NCBI GenBank assembly: GCA_964016885.1
Contig: OZ024740.1
Coordinates: 314,092,001 to 314,156,000 of the forward strand
DNA length: 64,000 nt
Source: Eledone cirrhosa
Lineage: Eukaryota
Reading direction: 5' to 3'
In this document: positions 26,145-40,717 of the stretch, piece by piece
How positions within the stretch are numbered: the first letter of the stretch is position 1
How the letters are laid out: each line of letters begins with the position of its first letter
Notes under the pieces: generated by a model
What the model was told of the DNA's origin: nothing
Database searches by the model: none
The model's input: the letters and a program-made list of their open reading frames with translations, nothing else
Position numbers and translations under genes: made by a program

Positions 26145-26461
26145 ATGGGAGCACCATTGAGTACCGGAACAACAACAGAACAAAAACCAACGGAACAAAA
26201 ACCGACGGAACAAAAGACAACGGAAGAAATACCAACTGAAGAAATACCAACGGAAGAAATACCAACGGAAGAAATACCAACGGAAGATAAAACAAGTAAA
26301 CTAAAAACAACAGAAGAGAAATCCGAAACTATGCCTTCTATAAACGAGGAATCGGTTGATCCTGCTACTGGATTGACGGTCAAAGAAAAAGCTGCTATCG
26401 TTGAGAGCTGGCAACATGTTTTACCAAACCAGAAGGTTTTATCTATGGCATTCTTCGAAAA
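26145..26461 (+). CDS. Globin, coding exon 1 (N-terminal extension plus A/B helices)
   Basis: The ATG is preceded by an in-frame TAA. Translation is MGAPLS..., PTEQK/PTEEI repeats, VDPATGLTVKEKAAIVESWQHV...AFFEK. It ends AA|GTAAGT (phase 2, B12.2 position). Confidence 0.9.
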
Positions 26462-26939
26462 GTAAGTGTCAACATTTTATCATATACATAGCATAAACAT
26501 TGTTTAGATATACAGAGTGGCGCAAAAGTCACGCACTACGCTAATCATCATATTATGAATATATATTACATTTATTTACTGAGAAAAATAACAAGTATGA
26601 ATATATTATGGCAGAGTGTCATTTTACTGCTGCACAACTTTTGTGCCACCCTGTATATGCATGCATGTAGTCCCGGCGATTCTAGGGCATATATCTTTTT
26701 TTTTCTTTTTAACCCTTTCATGACCACATTTTTAATGAAATACACTCAATTTTAATTAATTAATGAAGAATTTTGGGGGATTTACTAAAATTATTAATTA
26801 TTTAATTACTAAGATAATAACTTAATGTAAGGTTCTTATATAAAATTATGCTAGAAGATTTTAATTTTTATTTGAAACCTTTAAAATGGGTGGTTTTATT
26901 TCATAGAACCGTAGCCGGTTTTGGCCGGATTGATAACTA

Positions 26940-27200
26940 AAGAGTTAAACCTGGCGGAGTCCATCTCCTCTCCAGGTCTAAATACAGTAGATTTCTTCCA
27001 GAAAAGTACAGGCATTGAGGGAATGGAAGTGAGAAAAAGATATAAAGGAGGAATCGACCCCAGTACGTGACTGGTTCCTTTTTATCTATTTCGAATGAAT
27101 GAAAGTTGACCTCAGCGGGATTTGAACTCAGATAGCAGAGCACCGAAGCGAATACCGCAAAGCATACTACTCCACATTTTAACGACTCCACCAATTTGCG
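26940..27200 (-). mobile_element. SINE with alternative tail (intronic)
   Basis: Reverse complement of the SINE head and core joined to the tail seen at 20395-20570. Confidence 0.65.
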
Positions 27201-27979
27201 ACTTTTGTATATGTATATACTAATACTATATTACTAAACTGGATAAATCCTAAACTTACACATATTAGTTTTGGGAGAATTCGAATGTTGTTTTTCTAAC
27301 ACCTTATTTTATACTTTTTTCCCAAATGCGTATGTGTATATATGTGTAGGGTTACATACATATACACATATGTTTATCTGTGACTTTGTTTGGGTATACA
27401 AATGGAGAAGAATATTAGAAGTAATATAAGTGTGTGTATATAACTGTTATTGAACTGCGTTTTATGCAATTGAGTAAATACATCGAACAGTCAGAATATT
27501 CCTCTGGAAGTATTTTATATTTGCTGAGATGGAGGCCATACTGTAACATTTGATGACAGTCAGATAGCCTTCTTCAGCAAAACTTGACTCGATTACAGTG
27601 GAAGTGTTGATACGGAGATGATCCACACTAAGACCTTCTCGGGTGTAGAAGCCACTATCTGCAGAGTACTCCTATGTCCTGTACAAATACCGTAAAAATA
27701 TATACTTTCACCTTTATTGTCGTTGAATTTCTTTTCGGTGTGAATGTGGGATATTGTTACAGTTTGAGTAATTTTGTTTGCACTACCTTTCTATATATAT
27801 TTCTAAATAGTGTAGGGCTTCGTCGTTCTAAGAGAAAATACTTGTTTGCTCCGAGTTCTATCAACATACAAAAGGCCTATAAATCCTATATTCAATGTTG
27901 ATAAAGAGATTCATGAAATATTTAATCTTTTTTTACTTGCTTTTATGAGGCGGATACAACGCTTTATGATGTTCGTTCC

Positions 27980-28225
27980 GGCTCTCTGCTCTCTGAGCTC
28001 AAATCCCACCAAGGTCAACTTTGATTTCCATCCTTTCGATGTCGATAAAAAAGCACCAGTCTATTACTGGGGTGGATATGTTCCTCTATATCCCTTTCTC
28101 AGTTTCTCTCTCTCAGTTTCTCTCTGCTGTACTCAGGCCTGGAAAGGGATAGGCTTAAAATGTTCAAGAAACGCCGTATGTCAATACGGCGCCCCTACGA
28201 CTCTGTCAAGAGTTACGGGATCATA
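27980..28225 (+). mobile_element. SINE with alternative tail (intronic)
   Basis: GAGCTCAAATCCCACCAAGGTCAACTTTGATTTCCATCCTTTCGATGTCGATAAAA followed by the GGCGCCCCTACGACTC..GAGTTACGGGATC tail. Confidence 0.65.
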
Positions 28226-28734
28226 CACATACATATTTACTTTATCATTATTCTTCTCTGTTAAGCTAAACGAGTAGAAAAAAAATGTCTGACTGTTTTA
28301 CCAACAGACCTCACACAATAACTCTGAACATCTTGGATATGATATTCTTGTTATTTTACTGCGAATGTTTCCTCAAGGTTTGACCGGAAGTTGCTGCTGA
28401 CGTAACGAAGTATTGTGAAATAATCATCACATCTCAATTGCCAAAAAAGCACAGTGGCCAGTTGTTGGGTAGGGGATAAGTCCGTTTTACTTCCAAACTA
28501 TATAATCTAACTCAAGCTATACCATAGCTCAAGCTATACTAATAGACAAGCTGTCTCTCAATGACACAGCAAATCATCTAGCATGATTCCTGCTGCAATT
28601 GATCCGCTAACTCATTAATGCAGTCGATATCTTGACTACTGAAAGTTATATAGCTAACACTCACATTATCTCACTCTCTTCCTCACTTGCTGTTGTTACC
28701 TGTGATCTTAATCATTGCTTCGTGTGTGTGTAGA

Positions 28735-28842
28735 TATCTCTCTCTCTCTCTCTCCCCTCTCTCTTTCTCCCCTCTCCCTTTCTCTTTTACTCTTTCGCTC
28801 TATCTACCTATCTCTCTCATTCTCCCTCTGTCTTTCTTTCTT

Positions 28843-28873
<31 letters not shown>

Positions 28874-29074
28874 CTCGCTCACTCTCTCACTCTCTCTGTC
28901 TCTTTCTTTTTTACTCTCTCTCTATATATATCTCTCTCGTTCTCCCGCTGTCTTTCTTTCTCTCTCTCCCTCTCTCTCTCATTTTCTTTCTCTCTCGCTT
29001 TCTCTCACTCACTCACTCACTCACTCACTCACTCACTCACTCACTCACTCACTCACTCACTCACTCACTCCCTA

Positions 29075-29105
<31 letters not shown>

Positions 29106-39044: not shown

Positions 39045-39270
39045 GGCGGTAGATAGGCAGTATCGGTTGAGTGTCGGACAACATACTTTGCGGCATATAG
39101 CTACATCTCTTTTTGTTCTGAGTTCAAATACCGCCGAGGTTAACTTTGCCTTTCATCCTTACGGGTTCGATAAAATAAAGTACCAGTAACACACTGGGGT
39201 CGATTAAATTGACTTACCCCCACTCCCTAAAAATATTGTTGGTCTTGTGCCTAAATCAGAAACCAATATT
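39045..39270 (+). mobile_element. tRNA-derived SINE directly upstream of globin exon 2 acceptor
   Basis: Consensus head, core and tail. Confidence 0.85.
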
Positions 39271-39309
39271 TCTCTTTTAATCTAATAATTTCTTAATTTA
39301 TTGTTGCAG

Positions 39310-39535
39310 GTTGTTCTTAACATACCCTGAGTATATAGAATATTTTCCTAAGTTCAGAGGCAAACCATTTAGTGAAATCAAAGAAATGACCACTTTTGTT
39401 TTTCATGCAAAAAGTGTGTTCGCGGCTTTGACATCCATTGTAAACAATCTAGACAAAAGTGATGTCCTAGTGTCGCTGCTGGTTAAAACAGGAAAAGACC
39501 ACCACATGAGAGGAGTTCCGGTTGAAGCGTTCCAC
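39310..39535 (+). CDS. Globin, coding exon 2 (B12 to G6; haem-binding core)
   Basis: The TTGTTGCAG|G acceptor completes the Lys codon. Translation includes LFLTYPEYIEYF (C2 Pro, CD1 Phe), FHAKSVF (E7 His, E11 Val) and GKDHHMRGV (F8 His). It ends CAC|GTACGT (phase 0, G7.0). Confidence 0.93.
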
Positions 39536-39709
39536 GTACGTGAGACTTTATTTTTGAAATATATTCTCTTTATTCTGTACATTAAACTAAATATATGAAT
39601 ATGTTTTCTCTCTCTCTCTTCCCAATATGTTTCTTCAAAAGTCATTTTATTATAATAATGTCAGTTGGCCTAGTGCCTATAGTAGAAACCATTATAATAA
39701 CGTGAGTTA

Positions 39710-39890
39710 GGCGGTGGATTAGCAGTATCAGTAGAGAGTCGGACACCATGCTTTGCAGCATAGAGTTACGGTCCTTTACAGTCTGAGTTCAAATCCCGCC
39801 GAGGTTAACTTTGCCTTTCATCCTTACGGGGTCGATAAAATAAAGTACCAGTAACGTACTGGGGTCGATTTAATCGACTTTCCACGCCCA
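39710..39890 (+). mobile_element. tRNA-derived SINE in globin intron 2
   Basis: Consensus head and core. Confidence 0.85.
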
Positions 39891-40196
39891 TTCAAATGTT
39901 TAACTATGAAACGAATTCTAAGACAGTTTAAATTGTATTCACAGTTGTATAAATAACATTACAAACATTTCACAATTCTTTCAGAATGAAAATATAAACA
40001 CATATATAAAAACATAATATATGCAATTAATTATTGATAGGATCCTTAGAAATACAACACACCAAAGAAAAACAAAAACAAAAACGACCATCATGTGCGA
40101 CAATCGGCCGCACATCACAAAGATCAATGAAAAACACTGTTTATAAATGTCTCTAAAATCCTGTAGCAAAATCAAAATGAGAATATTTATATATAG

Positions 40197-40381
40197 CAGA
40201 CCTGCCAACCTCTAAAAATCCAAACCGAGAAAAAAGGTGCCTCAAATGGGAAGAAATGAGGCAAAATGGGAAGAATTTACATAATGAAAGCTATACCCAT
40301 TTTCACAAAAAAAGACATCCCTCGTCTACCCCATAGTGGATGAGAGATCTCCCTGTCGGACGGAGAGAGTTCACAGGTCTG
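40197..40381 (+). mobile_element. About 185-bp MITE, hAT-like TIRs, 6-bp TSD
   Basis: Ends are CAGACCTGCCAAC ... GTTCACAGGTCTG. ATATAG flanks both sides. Confidence 0.8.
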
Positions 40382-40582
40382 ATATAGTGGAATTTTTCAC
40401 TCGTGGATTATTATTCTGCGAGAAAAAAAAAGTTAACCAAATAAATTGTATCAACATTATAATGTTGATGAAAGGGGGGGGGGGGGGGGGTCAGAAATGA
40501 TAGAGATATTGAAATAGCAAAATACTTTATGACAATGTAACAAATCAATATATTTACAATATTATTTGTTTTAATTCTTCAG

Positions 40583-40717
40583 AACTTGACTATGGTGTTT
40601 ATGGCATTCATGGAAGAAAAACTGGGAAGCAAATACACTCCTTTGGCGGCGTCTTCGTGGGAGAAAGCTTTAGCAGTTATGGTTAATGTCTGTCGTACAG
40701 GTATGGTTGATGAGTAA
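40583..40717 (+). CDS. Globin, coding exon 3 (G/H helices), not in supplied ORF track
   Basis: TTAATTCTTCAG| acceptor, then NLTMVFMAFMEEKLGSKYTPLAASSWEKALAVMVNVCRTGMVDE* with the conserved H-helix Trp. AATAAA motifs follow at about 40852-40903. Confidence 0.88.
   Translation, partial: NLTMVFMAFMEEKLGSKYTPLAASSWEKALAVMVNVCRTGMVDE

Follow-up and report, generated by a model that had tools for sequence, protein, structure and literature searches.

Myristoylated globins of the HbL type are a kind already known. Among arthropod globins, HbL included, myristoylation motifs are widespread and thought to be ancestral, and 112 proteins of three classes are myristoylated globins lacking a cysteine at position 3 (PMC7457136). 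A crab HbL is membrane-bound (PMC7457136, PMC3176823), and the table of Song et al. gives a myristate-only prediction for several clade I proteins (PMC7771090). Globin X has a central intron at E10.2 as its hallmark, and the vast majority of globin X-like proteins (GbXL) carry a dual myristoyl/palmitoyl motif (PMC7457136). Globin X retaining only its myristate, by virtue of a Cys3 to Ser change (C3S), shows no membrane association (PMC3176823), and one fatty chain is not enough to bind a monomeric protein stably to a membrane (PMC4010771). A transition from lipid-anchored to soluble forms was proposed for the respiratory globins by Blank and Burmester (as cited in PMC7771090). Octopus is said to have lost clade I globins, the seven globins of O. 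bimaculoides being placed in clades II, III and Sp-gb (Song et al. 2020, PMC7771090). In this work we analyze a window of 64,000 nucleotides from Eledone cirrhosa (contig OZ024740.1, positions 314,092,001 to 314,156,000 of assembly GCA_964016885.1), which contains a three-exon globin gene with a predicted N-myristoylation motif, a leader made largely of pentapeptide repeats and a second candidate start codon, Met63. A sequence-only reading of this window had proposed a stably membrane-tethered globin; we argue instead that the gene may give rise to a loosely membrane-bound long form and a soluble short form.

The globin gene and its relatives

Predicted splicing of the three exons produces an open reading frame (ORF) of 678 nt, i.e. 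225 amino acids. Both introns have GT-AG ends, with the donors GTAAGT and GTACGT and pyrimidine-rich acceptors ending in AG, and the junctions are in phases 2 and 0, falling at Lys106 and before Asn182. Counted from the CD1, E7 and F8 residues these sites correspond to B12.2 and G7.0 in the myoglobin helix numbering. The heme pocket is formed by F104 (B10), F118 (CD1), H138 (E7), V142 (E11) and H170 (F8), all identical in 7/7 cephalopod sequences. The predicted gene thus agrees with the sequence-only reading in its exon count, its 225-residue product starting with MGAPLS, its intron positions, and its Phe at B10 and CD1 and His at E7 and F8, as judged from the intron ends and the continuous frame. 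Searches and folding used the separate exon pieces and the O. bimaculoides ortholog as stand-ins for the spliced protein. Exon 2 alone matches the Pfam Globin profile PF00042 (E 3.4e-12, 47.3 bits against a cut-off of 22), and the model of the ortholog has a predicted local distance difference test score (pLDDT) of 89 and a template modeling score of about 0.8-0.87 versus solved globins. The protein therefore combines the three characters of a globin, namely a profile match, the CD1 Phe with the F8 His and, through the ortholog model, the helical fold, and we have little doubt that this is an intact globin gene. His E7 is present, but this residue is found in penta- as well as hexacoordinate globins. 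A tblastn search across the window detected no second globin, no other globin exon and no alternative exon 1; as there is also no pyrimidine-rich acceptor between the first start codon (ATG1) and Met63, removal of the repeat by splicing was rejected.

An exhaustive HMMER search assembled 129 globins. Its best matches with a single domain were combined with the window exons into a profile, which retrieved eight proteins among 1056 candidates. These are a globin-like protein of O. bimaculoides (P0134), two of Argonauta hians (P0136 and P0009), an Acanthosepion protein (P0006), two full-length proteins close to the latter (P0133 and P0135) and two exon fragments. A word-based search with exon 2, insensitive but the only one to cover proteins longer than 317 residues, gave 0 homologs among 38 candidates, and a further search for octopod orthologs recovered P0134 and P0136 alone among 349 candidates. 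The closest named protein is P0134 (71% identity over the aligned part), with P0136 at 55%; across the globin domain, identities to the six full-length cephalopod relatives are 73, 59, 56, 56, 51 and 46%. A quick maximum-likelihood tree of 75 rows, which took the 74 of 134 matches aligned over at least 105 residues, unites the seven full cephalopod sequences with a Shimodaira-Hasegawa approximate likelihood-ratio test (SH-aLRT) support of 100. Within it lie an octopod subgroup of four from E. cirrhosa, O. bimaculoides and Argonauta (SH-aLRT 96) and a pair of Argonauta paralogs (98), of which P0009 has a long branch. These relationships bear out the cephalopod host considered in the sequence-only reading and, taken alone, would most likely indicate an octopod different from O. 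bimaculoides. With Argonauta as outgroup the window copy shows 18 unique changes against 4 in O. bimaculoides (p 0.003), a difference that vanishes with the cuttlefish-like P0133 as outgroup (12 vs 9, p 0.51). Judging from these comparisons the window copy may be a diverging paralog, as P0009 is in Argonauta. Two further differences within the group may be mentioned: the sole cysteine, Cys218 (40691-40693, helix H), is common to the three closest octopod proteins but absent from the cuttlefish-like ones and P0009, and P0133 and P0135 have a charged C-terminal tail of 20-25 residues that the octopod sequences lack.

The window protein possesses a TGL motif before helix A (the pre-A motif). In the file of Song et al. 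this motif gives 22 text matches, 18 before helix A and 4 elsewhere in the proteins, and all 18 pre-A holders are labelled clade one (PMC7771090); it is an empirical marker derived in this analysis, not a published definition. The best PDB sequence matches are the Spisula nerve hemoglobin, Aplysia myoglobin and fish cytoglobin. On these sequence features the gene looks like an intracellular clade I globin (HbL, cytoglobin/nerve-hemoglobin-like) belonging to a coleoid orthologous group. Certain observations pull the other way: neuroglobin follows closely behind the HbL-type PDB matches by sequence (52 vs 61 bits); Foldseek with the O. bimaculoides model ranks neuroglobin first and does not separate the globin clades; and the tree includes two proteins matching clade-one entries of Song et al. 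but no labelled rows of clades II-V. The phylogeny called for by the sequence-only reading delivered the cephalopod group; the tentative assignment to clade I comes from the motif and the sequence matches. The Spisula solidissima nerve hemoglobin (PDB 8oup, titled hexa-coordinated) is the best PDB match of both exon 2 (E 5e-7) and P0134 (E 1e-15), and its 162 residues compare with 163 for the form that would start at Met63; however, identity is about 28%, its deposited chain has no lipid leader, and its coordination state is not transferable.

With the myristoylated HbL/clade I globins, such as the Carcinus maenas gill hemoglobin, Lottia Lgi_203115, Lingula Lan_6155 and many arthropod HbL proteins, the window protein shares a predicted myristate without palmitate, the B12.2/G7.0 introns and the pre-A motif. 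Their leaders, however, run 15-39 residues to the motif and are hydrophobic by the lipid, as opposed to 74 residues of polar character in the window protein. Like globin X, to which the sequence-only reading had likened it, the protein has an N-terminal extension with Gly2, but that likeness did not hold: the missing Cys3 and E10.2 intron (helix E lies inside exon 2) rule out globin X, which needs both lipids, and the protein has the clade I motif and seems to be of the clade I/HbL type, in which myristate without Cys3 is usual. GbXL was likewise set aside, there being no N-terminal Cys for the dual motif; the B12.2/G7.0 introns are shared with it and do not discriminate. As for the reported loss of clade I globins in Octopus, the start of P0134 matches none of the seven O. 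bimaculoides globins in supplementary files 6-7 of Song et al., and therefore this gene was missed in that survey; to judge by its sequence features, the clade-I-type orthologous group appears to overturn the loss. Among the literature matches listed (the best 20 where more matched, outside subscription journals), there was no description of the present cephalopod globin.

The leader, its predicted lipid and a possible second start

Gly2 and Ser6 are retained in 4/4 cephalopod relatives that have a leader, and Gly2 with Ser or Thr at position 6 occurs in 20/51 N-terminally complete homologs. An MGxxx[ST] start opens only 8/2345 ATG-led hexapeptides of the window; this rarity, together with the retention in relatives, indicates that the motif is more than a chance occurrence. 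The PROSITE pattern PS00008 asks for Gly2, a small residue at position 6, no charged residue or Pro at 3 and no Pro at 7; it is passed by the window protein, P0133, P0135 and P0136, while P0009 fails by its Arg3. The conservation of Gly2 and Ser6 makes myristoylation of the window protein likely. In this respect the sequence-only reading fared well: its predicted motif is upheld, the loss of Gly2/Ser6 in orthologs that would have told against it is not seen among the relatives that have a leader, and the palmitoylation site at Cys3 is indeed missing, C218 being the only cysteine.

What follows the motif sets this protein apart. The eight 15-nt units anticipated by the sequence-only reading are present, in the order TEQKP twice, TEQKT, TEEIP four times and TEDKT, accompanied by two degenerate units (Tandem Repeats Finder: period 15, 7.7 copies, 89%). 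Three units are identical in DNA, which suggests recent slippage. Differences between neighboring units fall at third codon positions in 8/14 cases (p 0.058; the units are not independent). The frame is open for 62 codons, with 2 and 3 stops in the other two frames. Of the flexible acidic spacer that had been envisaged, the flexibility stands: FoldIndex for the leader is -0.37, i.e. disordered, and AlphaFold gives residues 1-60 no secondary structure (pLDDT about 46-54, from a shallow alignment). The acidity applies to residues 27-48 only, as the first three units are charge-neutral. The repeat occurs in no other protein of the collected homolog set, contrary to its interpretation as a conserved tether, whereas the expected variation of leader length among species is real: the pre-A motif lies at a distance of 74 residues in the window protein, as against 27-30 for four cephalopod relatives and 15-39 for 15 other homologs (three motif-less proteins left out). 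P0133, P0135 and P0136 have a leader of 17 residues in which positions 7-17 include six large hydrophobic residues, followed by basic ones; in P0009 the leader is basic (net +4) instead of hydrophobic. The window protein is unique among 29 MG-starting proteins in having no large hydrophobic residue at 7-17, all 22 other MG-x-x-x-[ST] proteins having at least two, and the net charge of its residues 2-17 is -1. Thus, none of the second membrane signals that might lie near a myristate, be it palmitate, a basic cluster or a hydrophobic segment, is found in it.

A methionine occupies the Met63 column in 6/7 cephalopod proteins, while any methionine in the leader is found in 3/15 non-cephalopod proteins. 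P0134 (at 163 residues) and P0006 are annotated from the equivalent of Met63, and in the genomic fragment P0137 a single exon encodes the leader together with helices A-B, like the window gene. Positions -3 and +4 of ATG1 are both G. By the general rules of scanning, a short upstream ORF (uORF) ending just before ATG1 could favor a start at Met63. Hence a second, soluble form from Met63 is plausible on sequence grounds, and the possibility raised by the sequence-only reading, that translation begins at the downstream Met, is borne out in part, by the conserved Met and the two relatives annotated from it; the annotation of P0006 counts for less, for it is probably a truncated model, given that the near-identical P0133 has a leader. 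No globin precedent for alternative starts was noted among the literature matches listed.

Weak attachment, firm tether or soluble protein

The course of events that we propose would begin with a globin whose heme pocket is intact, and which, when started at ATG1, would be myristoylated at Gly2. In the relatives the predicted myristate is adjoined by a segment of 11 residues, hydrophobic and then basic; in the window protein a recent in-frame slippage expansion has replaced it with a polar, disordered and Cys-free leader of 56 residues. Membrane binding of the long form would accordingly be weak and reversible, without a firm tether. The soluble form of 163 residues would arise at Met63, either through leaky scanning or because ribosomes re-initiate there once they have translated the tiny uORF. 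We regard this scheme as a whole, a loosely bound long form beside a soluble short one, as on balance probable, and in much the same degree or slightly more so we lean toward a role of this bis-His-prone globin in handling nitric oxide and reactive oxygen species or in local O2 buffering, as against O2 transport in blood. Several points speak against the scheme: the repeat is known here from one species only; the Met63 column has no Met in the Argonauta paralog P0009; P0006, as said, probably owes its start to truncation; crab hemoglobin and C. elegans GLB-26 are membrane-located with no palmitoyl site reported; and dimerisation would double the lipid anchor.

The last two points lead to the reading in which the globin is stably tethered on a long flexible spacer, its expansion being an adaptive gain of reach (a contour of about 24 nm vs about 9 nm in relatives) and its stability being due perhaps to a partner protein or to avidity of a dimer. 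It accommodates the retention of Gly2/Ser6, a leader that is in frame and disordered, and the excess of third-position changes, which hints weakly that the peptide is under selection. Yet there is no hydrophobic, basic or Cys signal by the lipid, and the repeat is confined to this protein in the collected set. The many crab-type relatives in that set retain hydrophobic residues at 7-17, unlike the window protein. The lack of a second signal, taken with the failure of C3S globin X to remain on membranes, makes stable anchoring by myristate alone doubtful, and the firm tether of the sequence-only reading was not sustained; we consider it improbable. Conversely, Met63 might be the main start, with the leader a decaying relic in which the repeat drifts neutrally; the product would then be a soluble globin of the ordinary sort, in line with the O. 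bimaculoides annotation. The annotation of P0134 from the same Met, the A at -3 of Met63, the uORF stop just ahead of ATG1 and the excess of changes in the window copy with the Argonauta outgroup fit such a history; but that excess is gone with the cuttlefish-like outgroup, and a relic sits uneasily with 62 open codons when the other frames have stops, a repeat unit that is a multiple of three, the G at -3 and +4 of ATG1 and the retained MGAxxS, so that we hold it to be a shade more doubtful than the firm tether. The acidic block could also be a PEST-type degradation signal, making the lipidated long form short-lived, so that the soluble form would prevail more. Residues 25-48, flanked by two Lys, score about +22.8, and 0/5 cephalopod relatives exceed 0 in their first 100 residues; nevertheless, the score tracks composition, such that any repeat of P, E and T would score high, and it comes from our own implementation of the formula, not from the reference program. 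This we think quite unlikely.

Returning to the scheme of two forms, the comparison with P0134 and P0136 is instructive: both share the pocket residues, the pre-A motif and the internal Met with the window protein, and P0136 also MGAxxS, but the annotation of P0134 includes no leader, that of P0136 has 17 hydrophobic/basic residues, and neither has the repeat. A wider conjecture, which we put forward as speculative and rather unlikely to hold in all its parts, is that coleoids, which rely on hemocyanin, keep a clade I globin with two conserved starts, for a membrane and a soluble form, in spite of the loss reported for Octopus, and that the anchor is being lost separately in several octopod lineages, the leader being apparently absent in O. 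bimaculoides, basic in the Argonauta paralog and a repeat in the window gene. If true, there would be, within one gene, a living intermediate in the transition by which respiratory globins are proposed to have become soluble, starting from membrane-bound ancestors. The conserved internal Met offers a simple way for a globin anchored by a lipid to become soluble. Leaders that are hydrophobic/basic, basic only, a polar repeat and possibly none, all within one orthologous group, amount to a natural test of the second signal required by a myristate-only globin.

Flanks of the gene and other elements in the window

The features of the gene are collected in Table 1. The strong splice acceptor ahead of the start codon points to a non-coding first exon further upstream, which was not located on reading 18400-25200; the exon fragment P0137, which is cuttlefish-like, reads F-P-F-Q ahead of its start codon, and this would be consistent with the same acceptor. 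The in-frame TAA of the uORF indicates that there is no longer 5' coding extension inside exon 1; no in-frame counterpart of this uORF is seen in P0137. The putative 5' untranslated region has two more tiny out-of-frame uORFs, starting at 25972 and 25982 (one and two codons).

Table 1. Features of the globin gene in the window
Feature	Position	Strand	Remarks
Strong splice acceptor upstream of start codon	25936-25960	+	0.94 pyrimidine; ranks first among five candidates in 25500-26330
Three-codon in-frame uORF	26130-26141	+	ATG 26130, TAA 26139-26141; ends 3 nt before main ATG
Coding exon 1	26145-26461	+	317 nt; leader, pre-A motif, helices A-B
Predicted N-myristoylation motif MGAPLS (G2, S6)	26145-26162	+	kept in P0133, P0135, P0136, P0009
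Eight 15-nt tandem units (pentapeptide repeat)	26175-26294	+	lineage-specific; residues 25-48 PEST-like
Met63, candidate second start	26331-26333	+	A at -3; would give 163-residue non-acylated globin
Intron 1	26462-39309	+	12.8 kb, B12.2; full of microsatellites and a dispersed repeat
Coding exon 2	39310-39535	+	226 nt; helices B-G, CD1 Phe, E7 His, F8 His
Intron 2	39536-40582	+	G7.0
Coding exon 3	40583-40717	+	135 nt; helices G-H, stop codon
Candidate polyadenylation signals	40852-40903	+	first two AATAAA, at 40852 and 40898

Elsewhere in the window there are broken reverse transcriptase fragments of the long interspersed element type at 3859-4416 (+) and 52889-53455 (-), which were the 2/9 ORFs tested that matched Pfam RVT_1 (E 1.7e-19 and 1.4e-10). 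A dispersed repeat of ~150-190 bp, 75-92% identical between copies and presumably a short interspersed element by its resemblance to such, lies at 39044-39218, 39709-39883, 52506-52852, 58650-58803 and about 20 other places; ARAGORN found no tRNA gene in the window. Inverted repeats resembling miniature inverted-repeat transposable elements or foldback elements flank the gene at 24972-25281 and, as a pair, at 40963-41172 with 42263-42471 (blastn), and a third one was noticed by eye at about 18700-18890 with 19190-19370. Finally, AT-rich microsatellites and minisatellites with an 18-nt unit form very long arrays at 4-3611, 11229-14784, 30486-31568 (in intron 1) and 44813-47156.

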